This document shows positions 3,216 through 57,923 of a stretch of 64,000 nt of DNA, in pieces (the stretch's first letter is position 1; each line of letters starts with the position of its first letter). A program made the position numbers and the translations under genes. Source of the stretch: Bacteroidota bacterium (lineage in GTDB: Bacteria > Bacteroidota > Bacteroidia > AKYH767-A > 2013-40CM-41-45). The notes beneath the pieces were generated by a model. That model made no database searches. It was not told the DNA's origin and saw only the letters and a program-made list of their open reading frames with translations. The DNA is taken from NCBI GenBank assembly GCA_043747595.1, contig JAYTOX010000065.1, positions 4,679 to 68,678 on the forward strand, read 5' to 3'.

Positions 3216-6200
3216 ATGTTTCGACTCAGTAAACACTTCTTCATTTTATTATTCCTGTTTTTTTGCTTGAAGCAATCGAATGCTCAATCATTAATCATGA
3301 ATGAAGTTTCAAATGGGACAACGGGTAATCAAGAATACGTTGAATTTGTTGTAGTAAGTAATACTGTTACTTACAGTTGTACTAGTAATATTCCTCCATG
3401 CATTGATATTCGAGGATGGATCTTTGACGATAATAGTGGCTACCATGGAACTTCAGGTATTGCGGTTGGTGCAGTTCGTTTTTCACAAAACCCTATTTGG
3501 GCTTGCGTACCTCTTGGAACAATTATTTTAATTTATAATGATGGAGATAGAAATCCGGCCATTCCACCTGACGATATAACAATGAGCGATAACAACTGTC
3601 GCATCATAGCTCCTTTGAATAGCACCCTCTTTGAAACTAACTTAACTACGCCTGGTGCTGTTGCTTGCTCCTATCCGGCAACAGGTTGGACTTCGGGAGG
3701 CAATTGGATAAATACAGTTTTAGCTAATACAGGAGATTGTGCACGAATAGTAAATCTCGCCGGATGCGAAGTATTCTCCGTCTGCTACGGAACAGACAAT
3801 CAGAATACACAAATTTATTTCTTTGGATCAGGATCGCAGAGAGTTTATTATTTCAATGATGTAGATCCAACCAATCAAGCTAACTGGACTAGCGGAAGTG
3901 CAAGTACAAATCCTGGCGACCAAACTCCGGGCGCTCCTAACAATGCAGCTAATGCAAATTACATAGGACAATTCAATAATTTTTGTCAGCCTATTACTCC
4001 ATTAATTGTTACCGCAAGTAGTACTAATGCCGGTTGTACTTGCAATGGAAGTGCTACTGCAACTGCTACCGGCTCCATTGCCGGTTATACTTTTGAATGG
4101 TACGATTCGAATTTTAACCCCATTGGACAAAGCGGAGCAAATGCCACCGGCCTTTGTGGAGGAAATTATTATGTAATCGGAACCTCTCACATTGGTTGTT
4201 CAGATACAGCAATGGTTACATTGACATCAACAAGTACTACGACACTTGCTGTGAACTCACAAATTATTTGTTCGGGAGCTACCACAAATCTTACAGCTAC
4301 ACCATCTGTATCCGGCGGAACATTTTTATGGGCTCCAGGTGGAGAAACAACACAAACAATTTCTGTTACCCCTACTTTATCTTCAACTTATACCTGCACT
4401 TATTTTACAGCCGGCTGTTCAACTGCCGCTACAGGAAGTGTAACTGTAAATCAAACTCCATTAGTCACTGTCAACTCTTCAACTATTTGCTCTGGATCTT
4501 CTGCTACGCTCACCGCTACACCATCCATCTCAGGTGGAAATTATTTGTGGTCGCCCGGAGGACAAACTACTGATTTCATTTCTGTAAATCCGAATAGCAC
4601 TTCAAGTTATTCAGTAACCTATTCGATTAATGGGTGTACAGCAACAGGATCAAATTCTGTTATCGTAAATCTTACACCAACCATTGTTGTAAATTCTCAA
4701 ACGGTCTGTTCCGGTCAACTAGCTACGCTGACTGCAAATGGTGGTACAACTTATTTATGGAACGACGGATCAACTTCCAGCTCAATCGCTGTTGCTCCAT
4801 TATTTACAACGGTGTATTCTGTCACCGGTTCTACAAATGGATGTTCTAGTTCAGCAACAACAACTGTAACTGTAAATAACTCACCAACAATTGTAGTTAA
4901 TTCTCCATCGATATGTAATGGCCAACAAGCAACTTTACTTGCTCAAGGTGGAACAACTTACCTCTGGTCAAATGGGGCAACAACAAATTCAATAAATGTA
5001 TCTCCTATAGTAAACACAACTTATAGTGTAACAGGTACAGATTTGGGCTGTTCTGCTACAGCAACATCAATAGTTACTATTGCGGCAAATTTAATTGTTA
5101 ACGCAGGAATTGATGATACCATTTGCACCGGTAATTCAACACAACTTAGTGCTAACTCAAACGCATCTGCAACACTTTTTTCTTGGTCACCAATTATTGG
5201 TCTGAACAATTCAACTGCATCAAATCCCATAGCAACCCCTATTTCAACAATTACTTATACTGTTGTCATGACTGATGCAAATGGTTGCACAGGAAGCGAC
5301 CAGATCACTGTTTACATTGAACCTATAGTGTCCGTTGCTGTTACTCCAACAGATCTAACTTGCAATGGAAATTCAAGTGGCAAAGTTTCAGTTACTTCTT
5401 CGGGTGGTTATCCTCCATATAATTTTGCTTGGTCGAATGGTTGTGCTGCGAATACATGCACCAATCTTATTTCCGGATTTTATTCTGTAGTAGTGACGGA
5501 TAAATTTGGTTGCACTTCAAGCGCAAGTACTTTTGTAAATGAACCGAGCCCAATTCTAGTCACAACCATAAACAATTCGCCGACTACATGTTTTGCAAGT
5601 TGCAACGGAACAGCAACTCTTTCTGCATCCGGAGGAACTGGCGTATTCACTTACATTTGGAATACTGTCCCACTTCAACTTTCAAATTTAGCAAGCGGAC
5701 TTTGTGCAGGAAATTATTTATGCAAGGTTTCAGATTCGAATGGCTGTTTAAATTCTACGTCCGTACAAATCAATCAACCACCTCCTGTAAGCCTAAGTTC
5801 AATTGTGAGCACGACAGCTTGTAATTCTGGAACTAATTTATCTACTCAAGCTTCCGGTGGAAATGGCCCATACAATTATTCATGGTCACCATCAATCGGT
5901 TTAAACTCTTCAATTATTTCAAATCCAATTTCTCAACCAATATCAGCAACCGACTATTCTGTTATTGCAACCGATATAAACGGTTGTACATCGTCACCAC
6001 AAATGATTACTGTTCGACCAACACTTCCACTTTCATTGTATGCGAATGGCCCAACATCTATTTGTGATGGAGCAACTGCAACATTGTCGTCTATAGCTTC
6101 GAATGGAAACGGACCGTACTCATATTCATGGACTCCGACCACCGGATTAAACAATTCATTTATTTCAAGTCCACTTGTCTCACCCTTAGCTAGCACTACT

Positions 6201-10094: not shown

Positions 10095-11534
10095 CTAATT
10101 TTTATCAAGAAAAAAATTATCAAGATGCTTTACCGGAATACTAATTTCTAATTCGCATCCTACTCCCGGAATGCTTGAAAGTTTAAAATCGCCGGCAAAT
10201 AGTTCTACGCGACGTTTCATATTTGCAATTCCAATTCCCGCCCGAGTATTCTCTGGATCACAGCCTAAACCGTTATCCTTAATATTTAATAACAAGCTAC
10301 CGTCCTTTTTGAATATTGATAAATTTATAGTTGTGGCATTTGAATGTTTCTGTATATTTCTTAATTGCTCTTGAATTATTCTGTATAAATTCAATTGTGT
10401 TTCCCTTGATAAAGAATAATTGTTAACAGAAGTATCGTACTTTTCATTAATGACATACTTTTCATCGCCATTAAAAGTATTAATTAAAACATGAATGGAA
10501 TCTTGAAGAGTACCTTGATCAATAAAAATTGGCGCTAAACGATGCGAAAGATTTCTAATTTCTTCAGAGGCTAGCTTAATATATTCTTTACTTTGCTCAT
10601 ACCATTTTAAACCATCAGGATCTAGTAATTTCTTTATCATACCCAAGCTCATTTGACTAGTAGCAAGTATCTGACAAACGTTATCGTGCAACTCTCCTCC
10701 TATTTCGTATCGCTCATCTTCTTGCGTCTTAATAATTGCCTCAGTAAGTTTCAACTCGAAATATTTTTTCTCAGTCACATCATTTACAATAATAAGTCTG
10801 TATTTCGTATCATTAATTTTGACTGGAGTTCCAAATATCTCCACATCTATTAGCTCGCCAGATTTTTTACGATGAATGGCCCCGGAAGAAAATCTAACCG
10901 GCTCATTATTGGTTTTCGTATTTTCCAATAAATCTAGCACCATCCCAACTTGGTTTTCAGGTCTGATTTGTAAAATAGTCATTTCTAAAAACTCTTGTTC
11001 AGTGTAGCCATAAAGTAATAAAGCAGCGTCATTCACTTGAATGAATTTTAAAGTCTTCAAATCAAAGACCAACATAGGCTGTGGACTTAAATGAAAAAGG
11101 TTACTATATCTTTTCTCAGACTCACTCAAAAGCGATATTGTTTTTTTTCGTTCAATGGAATAAATAATACTTTTAAATAAAATCGCAGAATTCAATTCAT
11201 CCTTTAATAAATAATCAGAAATCCCTTGTGATATTGATAATTTACTAAAATCAACATCTTGATAGCCTGTCAAAACTACAACAGGGCACTCATTAGCAAT
11301 TGCAAGTACCGAAGTAATAAGCTTTTGACCACTTAAATCCGGCAAAGTAAGATCTAAAAGAATCACATCGAATCGCGAACCTTTTTCTATTTCACCTTCG
11401 GCACTTTTGAAATTATCGAAATGTGTTATTTTCATATTAGACATTCTCTCACAAAGAAATTCTTCTACGATGAAAAGATCGCCAGGATTATCTTCAATAA
11501 TTAATATTTCATATTTTCCATTATCTTTTATCAT
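10095..11534 (-). CDS. receiver-PAS-histidine kinase (HisKA_3 + HATPase_c)
   Basis: N-terminal CheY-like receiver (ILIIEDNPGD...DVILLDLTLPDLSG). H-box 'ERYEIGGELHDNVCQ' is HisKA_3-type. C-terminal G-box 'NGLG...GIGIANM'. The start overlaps the upstream gene's stop (ATGA). Confidence 0.8.
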   Translation of the reverse strand: MIKDNGKYEILIIEDNPGDLFIVEEFLCERMSNMKITHFDNFKSAEGEIEKGSRFDVILLDLTLPDLSGQKLITSVLAIANECPVVVLTGYQDVDFSKLSISQGISDYLLKDELNSAILFKSIIYSIERKKTISLLSESEKRYSNLFHLSPQPMLVFDLKTLKFIQVNDAALLLYGYTEQEFLEMTILQIRPENQVGMVLDLLENTKTNNEPVRFSSGAIHRKKSGELIDVEIFGTPVKINDTKYRLIIVNDVTEKKYFELKLTEAIIKTQEDERYEIGGELHDNVCQILATSQMSLGMIKKLLDPDGLKWYEQSKEYIKLASEEIRNLSHRLAPIFIDQGTLQDSIHVLINTFNGDEKYVINEKYDTSVNNYSLSRETQLNLYRIIQEQLRNIQKHSNATTINLSIFKKDGSLLLNIKDNGLGCDPENTRAGIGIANMKRRVELFAGDFKLSSIPGVGCELEISIPVKHLDNFFLDKN

Positions 11535-11974
11535 TCTTTCCCATTTTTACTTGTTGGCAAAGTAACAATTGATATCCAAAAGTTTTCGATGCTCTTAACT
11601 ACATTTAGAAATTTATCAACCTCAACAGGCTTGGTAATAAAACAATTTGCTTGATTCATATATGACTGAACAATATCATTTTCAGAAGATGAAGTTGTAA
11701 GCATTATTACCGGTATATGTTTCAAATGCTGATTTGCTTTTACAAACTGCAATACTTCTTGGCCATTTTTTCGTGGTAAATTTACATCCAACAAAATCAA
11801 ATCAGGCAATTCGACATTTTCAAATCCTCCTTTCTTCATCAAGAAATCAATTGCCTCTTCTCCATTTCTAGCAACACTTACTTTATTTACGATCTTTCCT
11901 TCTTCCAATGCTTCTGTTGTCAGGAAAATATCGCCTTCGTTATCTTCAACTAATAAAATGTGCACATCATTCAT
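11531..11974 (-). CDS. single-domain response regulator (CheY-like receiver)
   Basis: 147 aa; 'ILLVEDNEGD ... DLILLDVNLPRKNG ... ITKP'. Confidence 0.85.
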   Translation of the reverse strand: MNDVHILLVEDNEGDIFLTTEALEEGKIVNKVSVARNGEEAIDFLMKKGGFENVELPDLILLDVNLPRKNGQEVLQFVKANQHLKHIPVIMLTTSSSENDIVQSYMNQANCFITKPVEVDKFLNVVKSIENFWISIVTLPTSKNGKE

Positions 11975-11979
11975 ATTTG

Positions 11980-14900
11980 TTAGTTTTTTGGTATAGTAAA
12001 ATAAAATGTACTTCCGAATCCTTCTTCCGACTCAACCCAAATTGAGCCTCCTAACTGTTCAATAATTTTTTTTGCAACTGCCAATCCTACACCAGTTCCA
12101 GAATATTCTCCCTTGCCATGAAGGCGCTGAAAAATAACAAATATTTTATCGAAATATACTTTATTAATACCTATACCATTGTCTTTAACCGAAAACCTCC
12201 ACACATTTGGTAAATCAATAATTGAAATGCTAATCTGAGGAAGAACATTGGTCCTGCTATACTTCAAAGCATTCCCAATTAAATTTTGGAATACCTGATG
12301 GATTGCTGATCGTCGAGTTTTTAACTCAGGTAAATCATCGGCTTCAATTTGACCATTCAATTCATCAATTTGTTCTCTAAAAAGAAATTTTACATCTTCA
12401 ATTATTTGATTAAAGTTTACAATTTCCAACTCATCTACTCCCCTGCCTACTTTTGAATACTCCAACAAGTCTAAAATAATTTGTCTCATCCGTGATGCGC
12501 CATCAACCGCAAAGTGAATATATTTCTTTCCTCTAGCATCCAACAATTCATTATATCTATTTTCAAGCTGAGTAAGGAAACTACTCACCATCCTTAAAGG
12601 CTCTTGTAAATCGTGCGAAGCTATATATGCAAATTGCTCTAATTCTTGATTTGATATTGCCAATTCTTGAGAATGCTTTTGCAATTGTTCATTCAATTGC
12701 TCCAATCTTATTTCAGAATTCTTTCGTTCAGTAACATCGCGCTCAATTGCTATCCAATGAGTATACCACCCTTTTTCATTTGCAACCGGAGTAACAGACA
12801 ATTCAATCCAAAATTCCTCACCACTCTTTTTATAATTCACCAAAGTAATTTCACATCTCTCCCAACGTTTTAAAGCTTTACTCAACTTCGAGAGAGCAAT
12901 CTTGTCCGACTTTGGACCTTGTAATAGCTTAGGTGTTTTACCTACTACTTCTTCAGAAGTATATCCTGTCATTTTAGTGAACGCTTCATTCACATAAATT
13001 ATCCTGTGTCCATTTTCATCAAATGGATCTGCTTCTGTAATGACTACAGAATCTGAAGCATTTACTACAACCGATTCCATCAACTTTAATTGTTCTTCTA
13101 TTTTCAAATTTTCAGTTACATCGTTCAAAAGTGCTAATGTATATGTCCTATCACTGTCCTCTATTAAATGCGAACTAATCTCAAGAAACATTATTTCTCC
13201 ATTCTTTTTTTTATGTCGCCATACACTTTTATTTGTCGAAATATAAATCTCCTTTGACTTTGTTATTGCTTCTATCATCGGCACATCTTCTATAGGACGC
13301 AATTCCCTTAATGATAGCGAGAGAAAATCTTTTCTAGTATACCCATATTTTGACAAGGCCTCTTCATTGGCATCTAATATTTGCAAACTTGTAAAATCCC
13401 AAATAAACATTGGACTAGGATTATTCTCGAAGAGCTTTTTATATTTGTTCTCTGATTCAACTAATGCTTTCTCTTTAAATTTATCAGCTGTTACATCTCT
13501 TCCCACGCAATATACAAGGTGGTCTTCATCATCCCATCTTGCCGACCAAACAACAGGCACCACTCTGCCTTCTTTATTTATTACATTGTTTTCAAAATTT
13601 GTTATCTCTAAACTTTTAATGATCTCCTCTGCTACTTGAATCGTCTTTTGATGATCATCTTGAATAATAAAATTTAAAATATTAATCCCCTCCAACTTAT
13701 CTGAACCAAGACCAAGCATTTCTTCCATAGAAGCACTCAACTTAACAAAATTCATATCCCCATCAATTGTACAAATAAAATCAATAGACGAATTCATGAT
13801 ATTTACTAAGTCTGTTTTTGCCTTCTGTAATTCTAATAAATTTAATATATCCTCTGTTACATCTTTCGAAAAACATGCAACACCAAATAAAGAATTATCC
13901 GAATTATAAATAGGATTGAATGATATCCTTGCGTAATTAATTCTCTTCGCTACAGGACTATAAATTTGTTCATCAATCAAAAATGATTCACCATTCAGTG
14001 CTCTACTGTAATAATTCCTCCATTTTGAAACTAGTTCAGGCCAAAAATCATCAATTAAAACAGAATCACCTGCTTTAGGTTCACGATTTATATATTGTCT
14101 AATAGAATCTTTATAAGCCTTGTTTGCCGTAATAACATTCATAGACGAATCAATAGACCAAATTAAATCGCTTGTTCCATTAATGAGTGATTCATAATTT
14201 GCTTTTGCTAACTGAATTTCTTCTGCCTGTTGAGACTCTCTTGTAACATCTAAAATGGTGGAAATAAGTAATCCTTGCCCTTCCAATGCCATTGACTTCA
14301 CATCTACAAATCGCTGTCCATCATTTTTCGTAGCAACTTCTAGTTTATCCCATTTTACAATTCCTTCAACAGGATAATCAAGCATAGAATCAATCCTACT
14401 TAATATTTCGTTCGAACCGTGTTCGCTTTTAAGATTTCTATTTCCCGGAATATCCTCAATAGCAATTTCAGCAACATCTAAACCAAATATTTTACGAAAT
14501 TGTCTATTTACAAAAGTAACTTCTTTGTTTTTAATATTATTCACAACAATTCCTATAGGCAAATTATAGAGAACAGACTCAATAAAACTATTTCTTTTTT
14601 TCAATTCATCAGACAACTCATTTTTCTTATTCTCCAAATTAACAGCATCTGTAATGTCTTTAAAATTATTTACTACACCTCCAACAGCAGGATCATCACA
14701 AAAATTTGTAAATGTACTTTCAATCCACTCTAATTTACCTTCAATATTTTTTACTCGATATTTAATACCATATATTGGCTTAGAAGGAGAAGCCAAAGAT
14801 TCACTAAATTTAGTCTTTACATAATTCAAATCTTCAGCATAAATCATTTTAAAAATAGTATAGTTAGGCTCTGGATGCAAAGCTTTTCCAAACGCCAAAT

Positions 14901-16386
14901 CCACTCCTTGTGAAACAAAAATTGGCACTGCTTTCTTATTGAGAATAATTATTGACTCTCCACCATTTTCTACAATAGCTTTAAACCTTCGTTCATTAGC
15001 AAGTAAAATTTCCTTAGCGATGTGAATTTCAGTGACGTCCATTCCAGTCAAAACAACCCCAATTATTTTATTCTCTTTGTTTTTTGCCGGACTAAATTTA
15101 ATCTGAAAATAATTAAATTTTCCATTTTTTTGATCTACTTTAAATTCTGTTTGACGTCCATTTCCTTTTAAACTCGCTAAACAATTTTCCAACAAAATCG
15201 ACTTTCTGTTTGGCATGGAATAATCCAAAATCGAATCTCCGATTTTAATATTTAGTCCCAACAAATTCGCATATAGCTTTTCTACTTTTGTATTGTATGA
15301 AATAATTTTTAATTCCTCGTCTATAAGAATAAACGATTCCTCAGTATTACTCATAAGTAAATTTCTATTTAACTCCGAATTTCTTTGCTCCGAAATATCA
15401 CTTAATGTATTGCATACATTTACTTCTCCATTTTTATCGGAAAAAAACTTCGAGGTAAATTCAAGAGGAAATCGGGTTCCGTCTTTTTTAATTCCAATCA
15501 ATTCGCCCTTCACAAACCCACTTTCTTCTCTTTCCTTCAACTTCAATCTCAGATCATCATTGATTAAAATAATATCATTTCTCTTTTTCTTAACAAATTC
15601 CGATTTTGAATATCCGAAAAGTTCACAAGCTGCTTTGTTTATTTCCAATAAAGTACCATCCGGCTTACTCACTATAAATGGTAAAATCGTATGCTCTAAT
15701 ATATCAAAATAATTTTCCGGTAATGTTCCCGGCTTTCTTTTCTTCGAAGTTTTTTTAACCCTTGATTTTGCATAAGCACGAACTAAACATTCATTGATAT
15801 GTACGCCAATTTTATTTATAGGTACAATAATTTCTTGTTTGACTTTTTTATTCAATTTTAATCCATCATTTTTCTTAAAAACAGTATCTTGAATAATTAG
15901 TTTGCTCCCATTTTTAAAAAATGGCGCAACATTCATTTCATCCAAATCATTGGTACCTTTCAAAATTACTCCAATAAAATTTTTACTCCTACTCTGACAA
16001 GATTTTAAAAACTCCAATTGTCCACTCGTTTTGACTAGTTTCTTTTTCCCATTTGTTGAATTCGATACTGACAATTTCAATGAACTGTTATCTGTAAGAA
16101 TCGAAATTGAACCTGATAAATATTTTTTCCTCGATCGACTCCCCTCTACTTCTATACCGGTTATTTTTTCAACTGTTTCTACTAACTCTCTTCTGCTTTT
16201 ATCATTCAGCTGAGTATTAATAAGCAGACATACGTTTTCCAAATCAGGCAACTGTTTTAAAAATTGTTTAATAGCCAAAGTTGAAACTCCTCTTGCTTCA
16301 ACTGCTATTATGGCGAGCGACTTATTATTTTTCTTTGCTACTTTCACCTTTTCACGACTTTTTTTTTCAAAACTATTGCTTTTCAT
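11980..16386 (-). CDS. multi-PAS sensor histidine kinase with a degenerate CheB-methylesterase-like N-terminal domain
   Basis: 1468 aa. The C-terminus has HisKA 'ASHDLQEPLRMV' and HATPase_c 'NLIGNALKYS..DNGIGI..GTGVGLAVAKKII'. Several PAS/PAC-like segments are present. The N-terminal ~200 aa resemble CheB (IAVEARGVST / FIGVILKGTNDLD...IIQD) but lack the GASTGG serine. Confidence 0.75.
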   Translation of the reverse strand: MKSNSFEKKSREKVKVAKKNNKSLAIIAVEARGVSTLAIKQFLKQLPDLENVCLLINTQLNDKSRRELVETVEKITGIEVEGSRSRKKYLSGSISILTDNSSLKLSVSNSTNGKKKLVKTSGQLEFLKSCQSRSKNFIGVILKGTNDLDEMNVAPFFKNGSKLIIQDTVFKKNDGLKLNKKVKQEIIVPINKIGVHINECLVRAYAKSRVKKTSKKRKPGTLPENYFDILEHTILPFIVSKPDGTLLEINKAACELFGYSKSEFVKKKRNDIILINDDLRLKLKEREESGFVKGELIGIKKDGTRFPLEFTSKFFSDKNGEVNVCNTLSDISEQRNSELNRNLLMSNTEESFILIDEELKIISYNTKVEKLYANLLGLNIKIGDSILDYSMPNRKSILLENCLASLKGNGRQTEFKVDQKNGKFNYFQIKFSPAKNKENKIIGVVLTGMDVTEIHIAKEILLANERRFKAIVENGGESIIILNKKAVPIFVSQGVDLAFGKALHPEPNYTIFKMIYAEDLNYVKTKFSESLASPSKPIYGIKYRVKNIEGKLEWIESTFTNFCDDPAVGGVVNNFKDITDAVNLENKKNELSDELKKRNSFIESVLYNLPIGIVVNNIKNKEVTFVNRQFRKIFGLDVAEIAIEDIPGNRNLKSEHGSNEILSRIDSMLDYPVEGIVKWDKLEVATKNDGQRFVDVKSMALEGQGLLISTILDVTRESQQAEEIQLAKANYESLINGTSDLIWSIDSSMNVITANKAYKDSIRQYINREPKAGDSVLIDDFWPELVSKWRNYYSRALNGESFLIDEQIYSPVAKRINYARISFNPIYNSDNSLFGVACFSKDVTEDILNLLELQKAKTDLVNIMNSSIDFICTIDGDMNFVKLSASMEEMLGLGSDKLEGINILNFIIQDDHQKTIQVAEEIIKSLEITNFENNVINKEGRVVPVVWSARWDDEDHLVYCVGRDVTADKFKEKALVESENKYKKLFENNPSPMFIWDFTSLQILDANEEALSKYGYTRKDFLSLSLRELRPIEDVPMIEAITKSKEIYISTNKSVWRHKKKNGEIMFLEISSHLIEDSDRTYTLALLNDVTENLKIEEQLKLMESVVVNASDSVVITEADPFDENGHRIIYVNEAFTKMTGYTSEEVVGKTPKLLQGPKSDKIALSKLSKALKRWERCEITLVNYKKSGEEFWIELSVTPVANEKGWYTHWIAIERDVTERKNSEIRLEQLNEQLQKHSQELAISNQELEQFAYIASHDLQEPLRMVSSFLTQLENRYNELLDARGKKYIHFAVDGASRMRQIILDLLEYSKVGRGVDELEIVNFNQIIEDVKFLFREQIDELNGQIEADDLPELKTRRSAIHQVFQNLIGNALKYSRTNVLPQISISIIDLPNVWRFSVKDNGIGINKVYFDKIFVIFQRLHGKGEYSGTGVGLAVAKKIIEQLGGSIWVESEEGFGSTFYFTIPKN

Positions 16387-16844: not shown

Positions 16845-17741
16845 TTACATAATCCCAAATCCTGGCGTATCAATTGAATATTGCCCGTATGTATGCTTAT
16901 AACTTAACACGGGTATCAATGAATGATTCACAATTTGCTGAGAAAATGCTCCCATAAATACTCCGGTAATTTTAGATTCATGGCCAGTGTTAATCACAAT
17001 CAAATCACATTTATTTTTAGTTGCATATTTGATTGCTGTCTCTGCTAAATTAGTTCCATAAGCCAAATTAGATTCGTATTGTAATTCATCTGATTCGATC
17101 AATCTTTCAACAGAAGCCATTTTAATTTTGAATTTAGCTATGTCACTTTTATCGCGCGAACCAGGCAAGCCTAACAAATGGATTTTTGAATCGTATAATT
17201 TTGCAATAATCATTGCTATGTTCACCTTTTCTCTGCTATGAATTGAATTATCTAGCGGAATCAAAATATTTTTAAACCCTGTTTTATTCGATTTCCTTTG
17301 AGTGGTTAAAACCGGAATGTCTGATAGTGTTATAACGCGTTGCGAGTTGCTTCCAATAAAATATTCTTTAAAACCTGAAGCTCCATGTGTTCCCATTACA
17401 ATTAAATCGACTTTCTTCTTATTCGCAAAATTATTAATCTCTGTGTGGATATGCCCTGATACAACAAATGTGGTACATTTTATTCCAAACTTTTTTACAA
17501 TTTGGTCTTTCATTGTTTCCATTTTCTTATTAATCCTGTTTTCAAGATCATTCAGTGATGGAGGAATTGTTTCGGTCGCGGCAAATACTGAATAGTTATA
17601 ACCGGTCGACTCTACAACATTCAACAATAAAATATCCGCTTTCAATCCAATTGCAAGTGAAGTTGCTTCGGCGAGAGCTATATCTGAGGTCTCCGTAAAA
17701 TCAATAGGAACAAGTATTTTCCTAATATTTATTTTTTTCAT
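16845..17741 (-). CDS. tandem-domain universal stress protein (UspA family)
   Basis: Two ~145-aa halves. The ATP-binding motif G-x2-G-x9-G-S is present in 'MGTHGASGFKEYFIGSNSQRV'. The second half is degenerate ('VINTGHESKITGVFMGAFSQ'). Confidence 0.8.
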   Translation of the reverse strand: MKKINIRKILVPIDFTETSDIALAEATSLAIGLKADILLLNVVESTGYNYSVFAATETIPPSLNDLENRINKKMETMKDQIVKKFGIKCTTFVVSGHIHTEINNFANKKKVDLIVMGTHGASGFKEYFIGSNSQRVITLSDIPVLTTQRKSNKTGFKNILIPLDNSIHSREKVNIAMIIAKLYDSKIHLLGLPGSRDKSDIAKFKIKMASVERLIESDELQYESNLAYGTNLAETAIKYATKNKCDLIVINTGHESKITGVFMGAFSQQIVNHSLIPVLSYKHTYGQYSIDTPGFGIM

Positions 17742-18048: not shown

Positions 18049-18597
18049 CTACTCCTTTTTAGGCATGATCAATTTATTCAATGCTCGAATCACATCTGCC
18101 ATTACATAAATAACAACCAGCAACAAAACGATTATCAAAATAGCACCCCATGGAACCGCACTAAAGATCTTCAAAATACTATTTCCAGGCTTTTCTACAT
18201 TGACATTATTGTCTGTTGTTGGCGCTTTTACTATTACAGAAACAGCAGTCACTTCAGGCTGTATCGCACTACCTTTTTCTTTTATATAGGCAAGCAAACT
18301 TTCTATTTCTTTCCCTGACAATTTATGATCGGGCATAATCATTCCATTGTTTTGCTTAAAGAGATTTACAGCTGACGAATCTCCTTTCTTAATCATGGAT
18401 TGAGACGAGGTAATAAACGACTTCAGCCAACTCGTGGAATGTCGGCTCTCTACTCCTTTTAAATCGGGGCCGACTAGCTTCCCTTGTCCAATCGAGTGAC
18501 AAGCAATACAGGATTGATTAAATAATTTCTCCCCCTCCGATTGACTGTAAACTTGAAGAGAAAATAAAATGATGGTAACTATCAAAAGTTGTTTCAT
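18049..18597 (-). CDS. monoheme c-type cytochrome with C-terminal membrane anchor
   Basis: Signal peptide, 'CIACH' heme-binding site, and a distal Met region (MIMPDH). The C-terminus is a hydrophobic helix (ILIIVLLLVVIYVM). Confidence 0.7.
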   Translation of the reverse strand: MKQLLIVTIILFSLQVYSQSEGEKLFNQSCIACHSIGQGKLVGPDLKGVESRHSTSWLKSFITSSQSMIKKGDSSAVNLFKQNNGMIMPDHKLSGKEIESLLAYIKEKGSAIQPEVTAVSVIVKAPTTDNNVNVEKPGNSILKIFSAVPWGAILIIVLLLVVIYVMADVIRALNKLIMPKKE

Positions 18598-18601
18598 AAT
18601 T

Positions 18602-18874
18602 TTAATTGGCAGATTTTAGAAATTCAACAATTTTACTTTGTTCATCATCTGTAATATTCGCTCTCACTTTCATGTGTTCTCCAATTAATGACCACTGATC
18701 ATCGTTATAATCTGTTGGCGATGGTGCATTATGACAACGAACACAATTTTCACCCCAAAGTGTTGCCCCACTCTTATCAGCTATCAAAGTTGAAGTTGTT
18801 GAACATCCTATATTCATAAGGATTACTGAAATTGTGGCTGCCACAACCAGTAAAATATTTTTTTTGTTTTTCAT
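18602..18874 (-). CDS. small c-type cytochrome (lipoprotein-like)
   Basis: 90 aa. The leader ends in Cys (NIGC). A single 'CVRCH' motif is present. Confidence 0.55.
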   Translation of the reverse strand: MKNKKNILLVVAATISVILMNIGCSTTSTLIADKSGATLWGENCVRCHNAPSPTDYNDDQWSLIGEHMKVRANITDDEQSKIVEFLKSAN

Positions 18875-18894
18875 AATTTTCGTTTTTTGAAGAG

Positions 18895-20121
18895 TTAAAA
18901 TCCTGTAGCAAATCGAACAAGGAATATATCGCTTGTGGAACCATCAGGCGACTTTTGATTTTCATAAGCAAAACGTAAACCTGACTTCCAACTTAACCAA
19001 TAACAAGCACCAATATCGAAACGAGTCGTTGTTCCTCCTCCCCATGCTGCTTCTTTTGGCAATGTACCTGAATTGTATCGACCAAGTATCTCAATATTTT
19101 TGAAAAAATTATTTTCGACAAACGCAGGATGAATTCCAAGCTGTATATAATACACACTACTCTGATTCTTGAATGTATATTCACCTGTACCTGTGCTATC
19201 CCCGGGATCTACATAATTGGCATCGTCTACATTCACAGAATTATATTGGCCCTTTAAATTAATGATGCTCTTCAATTCGCTCATTGACTTTACATAGGAG
19301 AAATCTATCGCATAAGCTGTCGCAGCTGTTTTTTCATAGATAGAATTTGCCGAACCAACCTTTCCACTATTTCCGGAGAAGCCAATCTCTAACGATGAGT
19401 TTGAAAACGGTAGGAACCCTATTCTTCCACCTATCGCTTTATTATTATTGTTATCATAAAAGTTTTCATACTCTAAAGTCCCTTCCGGGTTTGACCCTGG
19501 TTCGTCTCCATTTAATTTCGGACCGTTAGAAACATATATTGCATAATTCATTTTTGCTGTTCCTAATTGAAACCCTCCGCGAAGATCAACACCCATCTCT
19601 GCGCCATTGGGCCCTATGGAATGCATCCCATCTTCATGGTGAATCATTAGAGGTGCATTGGGGAATCGCTCTATAAAAGTTGGATGCAACCGTTCTAAGT
19701 AAGTACCAAATGGAGTGAGCATTCTTCCCGCACCAAGTGTCATATATTTATTTATCCTATATGAAAATTTAGCATACTCTAAATCTACTCCGGTTTCACC
19801 ACCGTCTATCGCTACTTCTACCTCGCCTTCAAAAAACAATCGGTCAGACAACTTCCACAAAAAAATTGGGCTAAATCCAACACTATTAAAATTACCTTTC
19901 ACAGGTGCTTTATCGTCATAAGAAAAATCGAAATTTGCACTTCCTGTTATTAGGCTTTTAGTATTGCCTTGAAGCGACAAAAGCTTCACTTCGTTTCTTT
20001 GAGTTTGTGTTGATGAAGTGTCTTGGGCTTTGGCACTATTATACCCTCCAAAAAGAAATACGAGTACCAACGGCAAAATACAACGTCTCAATTTCACCAT
20101 TTTCAATTTCAAGATTTTCAT
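18895..20121 (-). CDS. outer-membrane beta-barrel protein (porin-like)
   Basis: Signal peptide, alternating amphipathic strands, Gly/aromatic-rich, with an aromatic C-terminus (FATGF). Confidence 0.55.
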   Translation of the reverse strand: MKILKLKMVKLRRCILPLVLVFLFGGYNSAKAQDTSSTQTQRNEVKLLSLQGNTKSLITGSANFDFSYDDKAPVKGNFNSVGFSPIFLWKLSDRLFFEGEVEVAIDGGETGVDLEYAKFSYRINKYMTLGAGRMLTPFGTYLERLHPTFIERFPNAPLMIHHEDGMHSIGPNGAEMGVDLRGGFQLGTAKMNYAIYVSNGPKLNGDEPGSNPEGTLEYENFYDNNNNKAIGGRIGFLPFSNSSLEIGFSGNSGKVGSANSIYEKTAATAYAIDFSYVKSMSELKSIINLKGQYNSVNVDDANYVDPGDSTGTGEYTFKNQSSVYYIQLGIHPAFVENNFFKNIEILGRYNSGTLPKEAAWGGGTTTRFDIGACYWLSWKSGLRFAYENQKSPDGSTSDIFLVRFATGF

Positions 20122-20125
20122 AGTA

Positions 20126-20560
20126 TTATTTTTTAGGTTTATTTATAGTTCCAAAAGTTCTTATGTAATCAACCAATTGCCACCTTTGACTTTCAGACAA
20201 CGTTTGTTGGTATGATGCCATAGGGGGCCTTCCATTCGTTAATTTCCAAAATATAGCTCCATCACTTTGCGATTGCACTTTAGATATTGTCAAATTCGCC
20301 GGACGAGGAGTTAATGCCAATCCTGCCATTCCATCGCCTTTCCCTTTATCACCATGACAAACTACACATAGATGGACATATGTTTTTTTGCCTTCTGCTG
20401 TAGCATTTGCATCATTTTTAAATGGGTTAATTAAACTACTAGAGGATGCCGGCGCAAGCCAATCTCCTGCAAACATTTTAAACGAAGTATTAATAAGAAT
20501 GAAAAATGAAATAGAAAGAATTTTAAAAAAATAACATATTTTTAGTTTTGAATTTTTCAT
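20126..20560 (-). CDS. class I c-type cytochrome
   Basis: Signal peptide, 'CVVCHGDKGKGDG', and a distal Met in 'GRPPMAS'. Confidence 0.75.
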   Translation of the reverse strand: MKNSKLKICYFFKILSISFFILINTSFKMFAGDWLAPASSSSLINPFKNDANATAEGKKTYVHLCVVCHGDKGKGDGMAGLALTPRPANLTISKVQSQSDGAIFWKLTNGRPPMASYQQTLSESQRWQLVDYIRTFGTINKPKK

Positions 20561-21413
20561 GCAATTTAATTTTGAAATTCTAATTTCTGTAATTAGTAGA
20601 TTATAAACAATGAATTAATAACTAAATGTAAAGCGGAAGGAAAATGATGACTATGACTTGACTCAAAAACGAACAGTAAAAGAGATGACATTCGTCACCT
20701 TTCTTGTTTAAGCAAGGAAAATGAGAACCTATACCTAGCTCTCAATTAAACTAGTAAATGTTTGTATTTTTAAAAAATGATAATTTTATTGCAACCGATA
20801 GAATGAAAAAATGAAGGTTGACAAAGAACTTAAAGATAAGCGATACATTCATTAACCATCTTTTAAGGCGTAACTAAATTTTGAACTACTAAAATTTCGA
20901 ATAAATGAGAATGTCACTTTTTCTGCAGATGAATGGTTATAGTTTTTTTAAAATTACAGCTGAGAATTTGTTTTATGTAAATGATCTACATTGTTTCTAA
21001 ACCTTCATTTTCGCTTGTTTTAAACCAGTAATATTAAAAATGAAAATAATCCGGCTTAAATTTTAGCTGTATTCACGACCAACAAAAACACTAAAAGATT
21101 TTTTCACTGTTCAAATTCAGAATAAAAATCGCTTTTCATTCATGATTTTGTTAGAAAACTTATTTATCAATACGAAGAAAATGCCTTTGTGGGAATAAAT
21201 CAGTTAGTAATTAAAACACCGTCTCTACAACATGGAATTTACATTTTCTCTTTGCTATCAAATTCGTCATTTATACAAACGAAAATAATGAATTCAGGTT
21301 ATTAAAGTAAATTGATGGGATATTGTTCTCTCCGTAATAGTATTAAATAATTTTTAAAAAGTCGGAAGATGTTGTACTAAAAAAATTAATCTATTCATAT
21401 TTTTAAATCTCGA

Positions 21414-22863: not shown

Positions 22864-23889
22864 TCAAGCAATCGTCATCGACTTCATGTGACTCTTTACT
22901 CTCTCTTCAATAATACTGAGCGGTGATGCTATTGCATTTACATATTGGTAATTGCCTTCCCGTTTATTTTCAATTGAAAGCTGGATTGGACAGGCTTCAC
23001 TTTGTACGCCATTTACTTTAAACTTGCCAGAAAGATGGTCATAGAATACATAGGGCGCACCTGAAGATCCAAATCGAAAATATCCTTTTATAAGATACCT
23101 AATCCCTTCGATTCTATAATTGCCTCCAAATGGATCGTTGAACATATTGAAGTGGTCAACATAGCCTTCAATTTGCGCTTTGCTTATCATTCGCCCAATT
23201 TCATTAGTCGTTGAGCTTTGCAAACAGTAGAAATCCTTTTTATCGTCAGTGAAAACAGAATAATCGGGTTCCAAGAATGGCAAGCTCGCAATAACTTCAA
23301 GAGGTGTATTCACAATTTTATACAGAGCTATATCATCGGCATAAAAAGCTTCTACTAATTCCACATCCAATAAAAATGTATGTTTGTTAATTATCTCTTC
23401 ATAAAACGAATTGCTTGCATTGAAATAATTTGTCAAATTTTCATTCATATAGAAACTCGGAAAACTAAACTGAATTAGTAATTTAGATTTCACAACTTCC
23501 TTTTCCATGAGTGTAATCCACCTTAAATCATAATTAATCTGTTTAAGAATTTCTCTCATAATGGATACATCGTTCGGATTATTGAAACGCTCATATCTTT
23601 TGTTTGAAAGCGTATCTAACGGAAAACAATTATCAAACATCTGAATCTGCGCAGGATTTAAATGAGGGTAAATCTCGCTCATATAAATTGTGTTATCGAT
23701 CGATTTAAACAAAGGAGTCATGGTACGGAGATTATGCGCTACTGAAAGAACGAATCCATTACCTATGTGAAAAGCACAAATGTTATTTTCGAATTTCCTC
23801 CTCTGCGGATCTTTTGAATCTTGAACACTCATGATTCTGAAAAGTGGAGAAAACTGCTCACTGATCAATTCAAATTGTTTACTCTGCAT
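22864..23889 (-). CDS. cytoplasmic chymotrypsin-fold (S1-like) serine peptidase with a long H-to-D insertion
   Basis: Catalytic triad motifs in order: 'FVLSVAHNL' (TAAHC-like), 'DDIALYKI' (DIALL-like) and 'GSSGAP' (GDSGGP-like). No signal peptide. Confidence 0.5.
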   Translation of the reverse strand: MQSKQFELISEQFSPLFRIMSVQDSKDPQRRKFENNICAFHIGNGFVLSVAHNLRTMTPLFKSIDNTIYMSEIYPHLNPAQIQMFDNCFPLDTLSNKRYERFNNPNDVSIMREILKQINYDLRWITLMEKEVVKSKLLIQFSFPSFYMNENLTNYFNASNSFYEEIINKHTFLLDVELVEAFYADDIALYKIVNTPLEVIASLPFLEPDYSVFTDDKKDFYCLQSSTTNEIGRMISKAQIEGYVDHFNMFNDPFGGNYRIEGIRYLIKGYFRFGSSGAPYVFYDHLSGKFKVNGVQSEACPIQLSIENKREGNYQYVNAIASPLSIIEERVKSHMKSMTIA

Positions 23890-29575: not shown

Positions 29576-31444
29576 ATGAAAAACATAACAACTGTCCTCG
29601 GATTAGCATTTATTTTCTCGTTATCTGCATGTACATCAACCTATCATGCAGGATCTTCGCCATCAGACGATGTTTACTATTCAAGTAAAGACAACTCCCA
29701 AAAACAACAAACTTATCCTACTACCCCTGCCGCTCCGGCTCAAGACTATAGCACAGGAAATAATAGTAACAATCAAAACAATTCTTCAAACCAAAATACT
29801 GATCAATCTCAATACAGTTCCAACCAAAATCAAGGAACTACAGATCAATATCAAAATACAAATTCTGACAATAATCAGTCGACCGGAAACTCGTCATCTT
29901 CAAAATATTCTGATGGTTCCGGAAATACTTATGTAACCAATAATTACTACGACGACTATTACGATTATCAATACTCATCAAGAATCCGCCGTTTTTATTC
30001 TCCGGCAATCGGATACAGCTATTACGATCCATTTTATACTAACAGTTACTGGTACGATTACTCACCTGCATCGTATGGTGTAAGCATTTACTTAGGTTAC
30101 AACTGGTGGGCACCTTCTTTCTATTATTATCAGCCATTCTGTTATGGAAGTTACGGAAGTTATGGTTACGGCTACTACCCGCATTCTTATTGGGGTTATT
30201 CTTCAGGATGGTATGGTGGTGGTTATTATGGAGGAGGATACTATGGTGGAGGTTATTACGGTAGTGGATACTATGGAGGTGGATATTATAATGGCTACAA
30301 TCATGGATACAATGATGGTTACTATGCCGGAAATACGAACCCATACTATTATAACTCCTACGATAATAACAGTACTTACTACGGTCCACGCGGATCTGTA
30401 GGCGATAACACTCCACGTGGAGGTAGTGGCCGAACATCTACAGGAACCTTAGGACAAAAATACGAGCAAGCAGTTGCCGATGGTCGTACACCAAAATCTA
30501 GTCCGCCTGCTTCTTTGGGTGGAGGAAGAAACTTAACATCTCCAAATCTCAATTCTCCAAATCCACCACGAACTATTACTAATGATCGTCCACAGGATGG
30601 AAAAAATAATGGTACACAACCGAATGTAAATGGAATTCAGAACACAACTCCTTCTAGAGGCAATGTTCCAGATCAAATTAATAATACGAACCCAAATAGT
30701 GTTGGAGGTAAAAACCTGAATGATCGTGGCTTAATTCAAAACCCGACAAATAATCAGATGCAACAGCAGAATTCCGGAACGGGAACAAAATCACCTGGTA
30801 CCAATGATGGAAGAAATCAAAACACGTCTCCTCAAATGAATACTCAGCCTGGTAAAAACAATAATGACACGAGACCTCTCCAACAACCGGAAATAAATCA
30901 GACCCCTAGAAATAATAATTCTCGGCCTGACATTACACCGGCACCAAGAGATAATAATTCTGAGCCAAGAAATAATAATACGCGTCCAGATTTTACTCCA
31001 ACTCCGAAAAATAATAATTCGAATGTTGAGCCAAGAAACTATAATGATAATTCTCGTCCTGAAATAAATTCTAACCCTAGAAATAATGGAACTCCTGTAA
31101 TTACTCAGCCGAATAACAACTCTGAGCAACGGAATAATAATTATGACAATAATAATTCAAGGCAAGAACCACGAATTGAAAATAACAGACCACGTCAAGA
31201 ACAACAAAGACAAGAAAATTTTGAGCAGCCACGTCAGGAACAAATAATGCCGCGCCAAGAAAATCGCACACCAATTTTCCAACCGAGGAATGAGCCAAAA
31301 CAATTTAAACAAGAAAGTACACCTCAACGTTCAGAGCCAACTTACTCTGCACCACCAAGAAGTTCCGCACCATCATACTCAAGTCCGTCGCCATCGAGAG
31401 GTGGGTCGAACAACAATAATGGCGGAGGCGGTAGAAGAAAATAG
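29576..31444 (+). CDS. low-complexity lipoprotein: Q/N/S-rich, G/Y-rich (GGYYG x5) and PRNNN-repeat regions
   Basis: Lipobox LSAC. The remaining ~600 aa are compositionally biased with no globular domain. A terminator follows. Confidence 0.7.
   Translation: MKNITTVLGLAFIFSLSACTSTYHAGSSPSDDVYYSSKDNSQKQQTYPTTPAAPAQDYSTGNNSNNQNNSSNQNTDQSQYSSNQNQGTTDQYQNTNSDNNQSTGNSSSSKYSDGSGNTYVTNNYYDDYYDYQYSSRIRRFYSPAIGYSYYDPFYTNSYWYDYSPASYGVSIYLGYNWWAPSFYYYQPFCYGSYGSYGYGYYPHSYWGYSSGWYGGGYYGGGYYGGGYYGSGYYGGGYYNGYNHGYNDGYYAGNTNPYYYNSYDNNSTYYGPRGSVGDNTPRGGSGRTSTGTLGQKYEQAVADGRTPKSSPPASLGGGRNLTSPNLNSPNPPRTITNDRPQDGKNNGTQPNVNGIQNTTPSRGNVPDQINNTNPNSVGGKNLNDRGLIQNPTNNQMQQQNSGTGTKSPGTNDGRNQNTSPQMNTQPGKNNNDTRPLQQPEINQTPRNNNSRPDITPAPRDNNSEPRNNNTRPDFTPTPKNNNSNVEPRNYNDNSRPEINSNPRNNGTPVITQPNNNSEQRNNNYDNNNSRQEPRIENNRPRQEQQRQENFEQPRQEQIMPRQENRTPIFQPRNEPKQFKQESTPQRSEPTYSAPPRSSAPSYSSPSPSRGGSNNNNGGGGRRK
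30208..30294 (+). repeat. 15-nt tandem repeat encoding (GGYYG)n
   Basis: ggtggtggttattat / ggaggaggatactat / ggtggaggttattac ... Confidence 0.8.
30904..31095 (+). repeat. imperfect ~36-nt tandem repeats encoding PRNNNSRPDITPA-like units
   Basis: Five or six repeat units are visible in the translation. Confidence 0.7.
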
Positions 31445-57846: not shown

Positions 57847-57923
57847 GGTTCGGTAGTTCAGTTGGTTAGAATACATGCCTGTCACGCATGGGGTCGCGGG
57901 TTCGAGTCCCGTCCGGACCGCCA
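57847..57923 (+). tRNA. tRNA-Asp (anticodon GTC)
   Basis: 77-nt cloverleaf with a 7-bp acceptor stem, anticodon loop CTGTCAC, T-loop GGTTCGAGTCC and a 3' CCA. It closely resembles bacterial tRNA-Asp. Confidence 0.9.

Follow-up and report, generated by a model that had tools for sequence, protein, structure and literature searches.

What a porin-like outer-membrane barrel might do when it is encoded between small c-type cytochromes, and with what those cytochromes would exchange electrons, is the question raised by a four-gene operon on the minus strand of a Bacteroidota contig (JAYTOX010000065.1 of assembly GCA_043747595.1; the window, in what follows, is the whole 64,000-nucleotide stretch analysed, positions 4,679 to 68,678 of that contig). 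A first-pass annotation of this DNA had described a cluster of three monohaem cytochromes around a porin-like barrel and had proposed either a split counterpart of the cytochrome-porin Cyc2 or a dedicated periplasmic electron-transfer chain for a substrate entering through the porin. The four open reading frames (ORFs), here called cA, barrel, cB and cC in the order of transcription, are indeed present with the sizes, haem motifs and short gaps that had been reported, and the cA-barrel-cB trio has the look not of an ordinary porin but of a gate, apparently not described before, at which electrons are exchanged with a metal ion. The reading that we prefer, tentatively and with somewhat less than even confidence, is that of a split monohaem porin-cytochrome redox module acting on a small metal ion, which the genomic comparisons suggest is most likely copper (Cu+/Cu2+) and possibly silver.

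The association of barrel and cytochromes extends far beyond the window. Homologues of the barrel are abundant, with more than 500 word-indexed, 2148 representative clusters found by a full profile search at E ≤ 1e-3 (442 at E ≤ 1e-30) and 391 barrel-encoding stretches in a scan of one genome per species. In a non-redundant set of 82 loci, whose ORFs were called and clustered and to which all counts out of 82 refer, the barrel is present throughout, cB lies immediately downstream of it in 80 loci and a cA-type cytochrome immediately upstream in 75, several of the loci without the latter being contigs that end at the barrel. At least five phyla are represented (Bacteroidota, Calditrichota, 'Chlorobiota'/Ignavibacteria-like metagenome-assembled genomes, KSB1, Rhodothermus and Neomarinimicrobiota), and the named genera include Pontibacter, Lutibacter, Sediminibacterium and Ekhidna, some of them as cultured strains (Lutibacter flavus DSM 27993 and Sediminibacterium magnilacihabitans DSM 22423 are among the carriers). 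A tblastn search of plasmids adds the Gammaproteobacteria, where, on plasmids of Alteromonas macleodii and Glaciecola, the gene after the barrel encodes a cytochrome that bears the cB signature in its first domain. Judged by sequence and gene order, the linkage of porin and cytochromes is thus a genuine conserved unit and not the product of chance.

In some relatives, this linkage is covalent. Of the 147 top barrel representatives retrieved, 17 have a cA-type CxxCH domain joined to the N-terminus of the barrel, and a cB gene follows both of the fused genes that were looked up (2/2). The order of domains in the fusions mirrors the order of genes in the operon and therefore provides evidence of the Rosetta-stone type that cA works on the barrel. 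The fused cytochrome is of full size (~100 aa) and is joined by a linker of 60-150 aa or by a coiled coil, rather than forming a short plug; because this connection is so long, the haem may sit below the pore rather than inside it. A more elaborate arrangement is found on a plasmid of Legionella anisa (L089:7708-11894, NZ_CP082853.1), where a 758-aa protein combines three class-I cytochrome c domains with the barrel that comes after them (hhalign with the barrel family: probability 99.9%, E 2.9e-32) and whose gene is followed consecutively by those for a dihaem protein, cB-like and cA-like, and for a trihaem cytochrome with a transmembrane (TM) anchor. These three genes would form a complete chain from the outer membrane to the quinone pool on a plasmid, with no obvious substrate genes nearby. 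We also note that many barrel homologues outside Bacteroidota (P0256, P0259, P0271, P0283 and others) bear an N-terminal coiled coil of 60-100 aa, with the consensus YVTREEYExLK..., which stands instead of the cytochrome or after it and suggests trimerisation in the periplasm.

The conserved order and the fusions bear directly on the simplest explanation, namely that a generic diffusion porin happens to lie next to ordinary electron donors of a cbb3 or caa3 oxidase, with no conserved linkage between them, which is the outcome that the first-pass annotation had itself set against its proposal. The matches of cA and cC to the generic PF13442 'Cytochrome_CBB3' would suit such a coincidence, as would the uninformative neighbours of the copy in the window. 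We consider it very improbable, given that the gene order is kept across phyla and on plasmids, that covalent fusions exist, that cB constitutes a distinct family found beside this barrel only, in every locus examined, and that no cbb3 oxidase gene (ccoN/O/P) occurs among the annotated ORFs of the window or the annotated neighbour genes of the 82 loci.

Each of the three cytochromes contains one CXXCH motif and is accordingly monohaem, and the gaps between the four genes are only 4, 20 and 4 bp, so that they are taken to form one operon (Table 1). The defining features of class-I cytochromes (CXXCH, a distal Met and a match to PF00034 or PF13442) are found in cA and cC, which exceed the Pfam thresholds (PF13442 46.9 bits, PF00034 43.6 bits), with E-values of 3.4e-12 (PF13442) and 1.4e-10 (PF00034) for cA and 8e-11 (PF00034) for cC; for cB, the assignment comes from its invariant residues and its fold. 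Indeed, cB remains below threshold in Pfam (20.8 bits), but on the alignment it is a genuine and sharply conserved family of 85-100-aa proteins in which W40, E42, N43, C44, R46, C47, H48, H67 and M68 are invariant, and its AlphaFold2 model is a three-helix class-I cytochrome with a predicted local distance difference test (pLDDT) score of 87. Cys24 of cB lies in a lipobox-like NIGC following a signal-like segment, and this column is Cys in every aligned cB sequence shown. The C-terminus of cC is a hydrophobic helix (AVPWGAILIIVLLLVVIYVMADV), which makes cC the presumed link to the respiratory chain of the inner membrane.

Table 1. Coordinates in the window of the operon genes, the spacer preceding them and the neighbouring stress-protein gene
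Feature	Position	Strand	Description
cA	20126-20560	minus	Class-I monohaem cytochrome c, secreted, 144 aa, CVVCH; first gene of the operon
barrel	18895-20121	minus	Predicted outer-membrane, 16-strand porin-like protein, 408 aa; L3 constriction loop with HHEDGMH insert
cB	18602-18874	minus	Lipoprotein, minimal cytochrome c with one haem, 90 aa, CVRCH; ~55-residue haem domain
cC	18049-18597	minus	Monohaem cytochrome c, 182 aa, CIACH; cleavable signal peptide and C-terminal TM anchor
Usp	16845-17741	minus	Tandem-domain universal stress protein, PF00582 (1.9e-39); context only, 307 bp downstream of the operon
spacer	20561-21413		853 bp, AT-rich, non-coding, upstream of cA

The porin-like character that had been ascribed to the barrel is borne out by its AlphaFold2 model, which has 16 strands (pLDDT 81.6, predicted template modelling score 0.79) and finds as its top Foldseek matches porins of the OmpC/OmpF type (E ~1e-11, TM-score 0.57-0.69). 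By sequence, the relationship is far more remote: the barrel of the window matches no Pfam family (E up to 1) and no NCBIfam family, a profile of its family run against solved structures found no porin, and only 6 of 30 barrel homologues match PF07396 (Porin_O_P), weakly (E ≤ 0.01, best 1.1e-6). Thus, the family would be at most a distant superfamily relative of Porin_O_P. From the strand order of the model and the periplasmic N-terminus of the fusions, loops L1-L8 are placed outside and turns T1-T7 in the periplasm. The turns on the predicted periplasmic side are the most conserved class, with a mean top-residue frequency of 0.84 in T4 (PFSNSSL), compared with 0.49 for the extracellular loops other than L3; among individual segments, T4 is conserved best. 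Such conservation of periplasmic turns is unusual for porins, and it would fit a docking surface for periplasmic partners.

Two positions of the constriction loop L3 are occupied in nearly all members by His or else an acidic residue, namely position 146 (His in 54 and Glu in 27 of the 82 barrels) and position 162 (His in 48, Asp or Glu in 24). The window lineage additionally carries the insert HHEDGMH (barrel residues 161-167, window 19621-19641), which is confined to that lineage and is identical in L008 and HHEDGTH in L009. Extracellular loops rich in Met occur in ~6 of the 82 barrels and are a hint rather than a feature of the family. Together, the L3 positions and the Met-rich loops suggest that the barrel may bind cations.

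Protein docking at the periplasmic turns would also be expected if the barrel were an outer-membrane scaffold that holds cA and cB while they relay electrons to or from another surface enzyme, such as a multicopper oxidase exported by the type IX secretion system (T9SS) or a lipoprotein enzyme, with no chemistry in the pore. The long linker or coiled coil of the fusions, which places the cytochrome below the barrel, would agree with this, and T9SS-tailed multicopper oxidases adjoin in 8 loci. We nevertheless regard such a scaffold as quite unlikely, since the 82 loci do not share a third, catalytic partner and the L3 constriction loop shows the kind of conservation seen in a functional channel; moreover, multicopper oxidases need no external electron partner.

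What would pass through the pore is suggested by the neighbouring genes. Recurrent neighbours of the trio are CopA-type P-ATPases (HMA and HMBD domains), CusC, CusB, CusA and the T9SS-tailed multicopper oxidase, together with DUF3347, DUF302 and P-II-like proteins, DUF2231 proteins with Met/His tails, secreted HMBD-repeat proteins and NDH-2. Further neighbours are His-rich and Met-rich proteins and small barrels with Met-rich loops, and CopC and CopD adjoin on the plasmids of Alteromonas and Glaciecola. The association with copper genes recurs in Bacteroidota, Calditrichota and the gammaproteobacterial plasmids. For comparison, 80 Bacteroidota metagenome loci centred on RF3, a housekeeping gene, were fetched and passed through the same marker pipeline, of which 39 enter the comparison with the 58 barrel loci of at least 12 kb, markers being counted within 15 kb. 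Copper or silver markers are found in 31/58 barrel loci and 1/39 controls (odds ratio 44, nominal p 3e-8), and markers defined by motif only (HMBD, Met/His-rich) in 26/58 and 1/39 (nominal p 1.5e-6), the loci being related and not phylogenetically independent, so that these p-values are only nominal and overstate independence. On this context, copper is the most likely substrate.

The first-pass annotation had suggested checking the cluster for neighbours from iron, sulfur or nitrogen metabolism, and such genes are not the ones associated with it: no family of any of these three recurs among the neighbours (for iron, among the 40 most recurrent neighbour clusters), and the recurrent genes are instead those of copper/silver resistance and of a quinol module resembling Alternative Complex III (ACIII). 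This result also makes it improbable that the barrel is a substrate porin which, with a periplasmic cytochrome chain, serves a non-metal solute (nitrite, sulfite, thiosulfate or another anion) handled by an enzyme encoded elsewhere. No catalytic subunit of a nitrogen or sulfur oxidoreductase recurs in the neighbourhoods, boxes for FNR/CRP are not enriched upstream of the operons (4/64 loci compared with 1.8±1.3 in shuffles), and the fusions tie the cytochrome to a pore, not to an enzyme. Points that such a solute would explain are the weak similarity of the barrel family to Porin_O_P, which is an anion-porin family, the closest solved fold to cB, which is SorB, the cytochrome subunit of sulfite dehydrogenase, a weak, sub-threshold similarity of cC to SoxX, and the Crp/Fnr-type regulators that adjoin some of the ACIII-type loci. 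Sulfite or thiosulfate oxidation, nitrite or N2O respiration and duty as a cbb3 donor were each considered and rejected, as no catalytic partner recurs and the similarities to SorB and SoxX are only weak.

In Alteromonas macleodii pKD02 (L088:10692-14357) and in L090, Met-rich secreted proteins are encoded directly after the porin-cytochrome pair. The protein encoded next, of 644 aa, has a Met-rich region at its N-terminus and a hydrophobic segment, and its C-terminal part is annotated as 2Fe-2S cluster-binding/ferredoxin; beyond it lie a gene of the cytochrome c3 family and a NiFe hydrogenase cluster.

The partners at the inner membrane are more varied than the trio itself. In 35 of the 82 loci, the trio is directly preceded by genes for a 4Fe-4S protein with a twin-arginine translocation (TAT) signal, an NrfD-type membrane protein, a protein with one TM helix and an Ig-like domain, and a monohaem cytochrome, in the order NrfC-NrfD-p181-c137. 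The NrfD protein best matches subunit C of ACIII over its full length (6btm_C, 7.7e-43), and the FeS protein is similar to PsrB/NrfC and to ActB in its C-terminal portion; we refer to this set as mini-ACIII. NrfD is encoded in 26 of the 58 long barrel loci and in none of the 39 RF3 controls, and copper-type genes also surround the mini-ACIII form in Chitinophagaceae. The combination that marks an ACIII-type module (an ActC-type NrfD, an FeS protein and a monohaem subunit) is found in related loci only, not in the window, which encodes cC in its place. The anchored cC occurs in only 8-9 loci, none of which encodes NrfD (0/9; chance ~0.005, by arithmetic on the counts), and the two are mutually exclusive. 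The trihaem cytochrome encoded by the third Legionella gene is a homologue of quinone-reactive trihaem subunits (1e-45 to 1e-48), namely those of the fructose, glucose, alcohol and aldehyde dehydrogenases. Thus, the inner-membrane link is interchangeable around a constant cA-barrel-cB core, being mini-ACIII, anchored cC or a trihaem subunit, and a constant outer-membrane core with variable links to quinone or oxidase is the pattern expected if the redox chemistry occurs at the outer membrane.

Some of the mini-ACIII operons are larger still. Those at L012:4481-8912 (minus strand) and its equivalents in L027 and L031 add a second barrel (DUF5777), a 456-aa lipoprotein (EB_dh haem b/DOMON-like domain and cytochrome c) and a YceI-like protein, so that the redox cluster in these lineages exceeds the trio. 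Beside the DUF5777 barrel and mini-ACIII, we also observe a family of ~134-aa lipoproteins (L012:5397-5801, minus strand; L015:2815-3225; L017:4451-4975) with a conserved C-x4-CH motif (CLGSGCH, CAISGCH, CYGSGCH), which may be an unusual attachment site for haem c.

We suggest that the operon of the window would work as follows. Tethered to the inner membrane by its C-terminal helix, cC would exchange electrons with cA, the presumptive periplasmic carrier, which in turn would pass them to or from cB, a lipoprotein that would be held at the periplasmic face of the 16-strand porin. At the end of this relay from cC to cA to cB, electrons would be exchanged with a small redox-active solute passing the pore. 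Because one haem per cytochrome cannot wire electrons across a membrane, the solute must come to the haem.

The partners point to different directions of flow. ACIII-type modules normally oxidise quinol, and by analogy the mini-ACIII partner suggests a flow from quinol to metal, i.e. a quinol-driven metal reductase. Trihaem dehydrogenase subunits, on the other hand, normally deliver electrons to ubiquinone, and anchored carriers like cC feed terminal oxidases; the Legionella partner, cC and the analogy with Cyc2 would thus suggest the opposite flow, in which Cu+ or Fe2+ is oxidised and the electrons pass to quinone or an oxidase. A bolder proposal, which we put forward as speculative and rather unlikely, is that cA-barrel-cB constitutes a widespread and hitherto overlooked haem-based oxidoreductase gate of the outer membrane for copper or silver, an O2-independent counterpart of PcoAB/CueO that draws on the quinone pool through a minimal ACIII. 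If true, the occurrence of split and fused forms in one family would show how fused cytochrome-porins such as Cyc2 could arise.

Beyond the relatedness of the loci in the enrichment test, several observations weigh against a copper-directed module. No His, Met or Cys is invariant across the barrel family, so that there is no sign of a fixed metal site, and the cytochrome of the fusions is held away from the barrel by a long linker or a coiled coil. In addition, 14 of the 58 long loci, the window lineage among them, lack both copper genes and mini-ACIII, and among the annotated ORFs of the 64-kb window there are no copper genes, no ACIII-like module and no respiratory complexes. The energetics are also awkward, in that an ACIII-like complex would have to move electrons uphill to bring them from Cu+ to menaquinone, while reduction of Cu2+ would be unconventional as a resistance step.

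A rival reading is that the module is an Fe(II) oxidase, a split monohaem analogue of Cyc2, in which Fe2+ enters the pore and is oxidised by cB or cA and the electrons pass to cC and an oxidase, or to quinone via the ACIII-like or trihaem partners. On standard potentials, Fe(II) at neutral pH would be a low enough donor for quinones, which would fit all three partners. The named carriers belong to genera known as heterotrophs, and the enriched neighbours (HMBD and Met-rich proteins, CusCBA, CopA, CopCD) are specific for copper and silver, with no iron family in the 40 most recurrent clusters; in contrast, ubiquinone is the electron acceptor of the family to which the Legionella partner belongs, and the second-ranked NCBIfam match of cA is a partial one to cytochrome 579 of Leptospirillum (39 bits, far below the cutoff of 280). 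Cyc2 itself is a fused cytochrome-porin, the Fe(II) oxidase of Acidithiobacillus, Zetaproteobacteria and Gallionellaceae, whose porin has been modelled on the Porin_O_P (OprO/OprP-like) fold class (Keffer et al. 2021, PMC8406198). Its architecture class, a 16-strand Porin_O_P-like barrel with a monohaem cytochrome c, is matched here, with N-terminal fusion in some relatives, but its signatures, PXFAR[QK][TY] five residues upstream of CXXCH and PXL four residues downstream (PMC8406198), are absent from cA, cB and cC, and a regular-expression search found them in none of 147 barrel representatives, including the 17 that are fused. Taken together, these points make an Fe(II) oxidase unlikely. The earlier idea of a split Cyc2-like system survives in part: natural cA-barrel fusions and the weak Porin_O_P matches of 6/30 homologues speak for it, whereas the lack of Cyc2 motifs and of a short cytochrome plug do not.

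The copy in the window is an 'orphan' cassette beside a universal stress protein and a large PAS sensor kinase, and its substrate is the least certain of all. Six non-redundant loci have a Usp gene close to the cassette, which is taken as context only. Downstream of the Usp gene of the window (positions 10095-16386, minus strand) follow genes for a 1468-aa multi-PAS histidine kinase, a 147-aa stand-alone receiver and a 479-aa receiver-PAS-kinase hybrid, an arrangement that also follows the cassette in the closest relative (L006/L008); these three proteins are candidate regulators of the operon. Two ORFs belong to no Pfam family, one of 341 aa (22864-23889, minus strand), which is conserved beside the cassette in L006/L007, and one of 622 aa (29576-31444, plus strand). 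The other annotated ORFs of the window are housekeeping, T9SS and sensor-kinase genes, and the only Rfam match in the 64 kb is a single tRNA gene (57847-57920, plus strand).

A long non-coding region had also been reported to follow the cluster. The region exists, measuring 853 bp rather than ~830, but it lies upstream (5') of the operon and not after it, and it presumably carries the promoter. Its G+C content is 26.5%, and its longest ORF does not exceed 38 aa. An Rfam search of the 853 bp gave no match, the DNA is similar only to the identical contig L005, conservation being absent even from the closest relative (barrel identity 88%), and sigma-70-like sites do not exceed the expectation from shuffles (13 compared with 17.4). 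On these grounds, it is regarded as a plain AT-rich spacer.

A literature search found no description of the module, including in a detailed study of the Alteromonas copper plasmids, which mentions neither the porin nor the cytochrome. To our knowledge, known outer-membrane redox systems are of two kinds, the multihaem wires of the Mtr/Pio type and the fused monohaem Cyc2 iron oxidase, and the periplasmic copper redox chemistry known to us rests on multicopper oxidases that depend on O2. The family described here would add a third design, in which a porin is combined with detachable monohaem cytochromes and interchangeable inner-membrane partners. If the substrate is copper, this would help to explain how copper and silver are handled without O2 in anaerobic and microaerobic Bacteroidota, Calditrichota and marine Gammaproteobacteria. 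It would also provide annotators with a name for families now labelled 'hypothetical', 'porin' or 'cytochrome c', and the idea can be put directly to the test, since cultured strains are among the carriers.

Comparison with known systems places the module between several of them. With Cyc2 it shares a single-CXXCH cytochrome and a 16-strand barrel of the OprO/OprP-like class, although the top matches of the barrel among solved structures are OmpC/OmpF and not OprP. In both, the cytochrome is N-terminal to the barrel (here as seen from the order of the genes and from the fused relatives), the connection to the respiratory chain runs through downstream cytochromes of the periplasm or membrane, and the solute would move to the haem, a mode already proposed for Cyc2. 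The two are set apart by motifs, architecture and context: in the window, cytochrome and barrel are encoded separately, an additional lipoprotein cytochrome, cB, is obligatory and follows downstream, the cytochrome of the fused relatives is a full-size domain on a long linker or coiled coil, and the neighbourhoods point to copper rather than iron. The resemblance to MtrAB, PioAB, MtoAB and other porin-cytochrome complex (PCC) conduits lies in an outer-membrane barrel whose gene accompanies those of periplasmic c-type cytochromes and which is connected to a quinone-reactive module of the inner membrane. However, the Mtr/Pio/Mto conduits have barrels of 20-26 strands that sheathe a membrane-spanning wire of ~10 haems, whereas the barrel of the window has 16 strands in 408 aa, a constriction by L3 of the porin type and monohaem cytochromes.

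Among the porins, OprO/OprP (PF07396) and OmpC/OmpF have the same 16-strand barrel with an inward-folding L3 loop, but the barrel described here differs from both in that its periplasmic turns are its most conserved part, it is always encoded with cytochromes, and it has no PF07396 match above the gathering score. The likeness to ACIII (ActABCDEF) concerns the 35 related loci with an ActC-like NrfD, a TAT-exported 4Fe-4S protein, a one-TM subunit and a monohaem cytochrome c; unlike the full complex, mini-ACIII is without the pentahaem ActA, the molybdopterin-like half of ActB, and ActF. In context, the closest known system is PcoA/PcoB (CopA/CopB), where a periplasmic redox protein and a dedicated outer-membrane barrel are likewise encoded in copper islands, with CopC/CopD, CusCBA and Met-rich proteins as neighbours. 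The barrel of the window matches no Pfam or NCBIfam family and is thus not a member of CopB, and the redox partner in the module is haem c rather than a multicopper oxidase, which means that it is not intrinsically dependent on O2 and can connect to the quinone pool.

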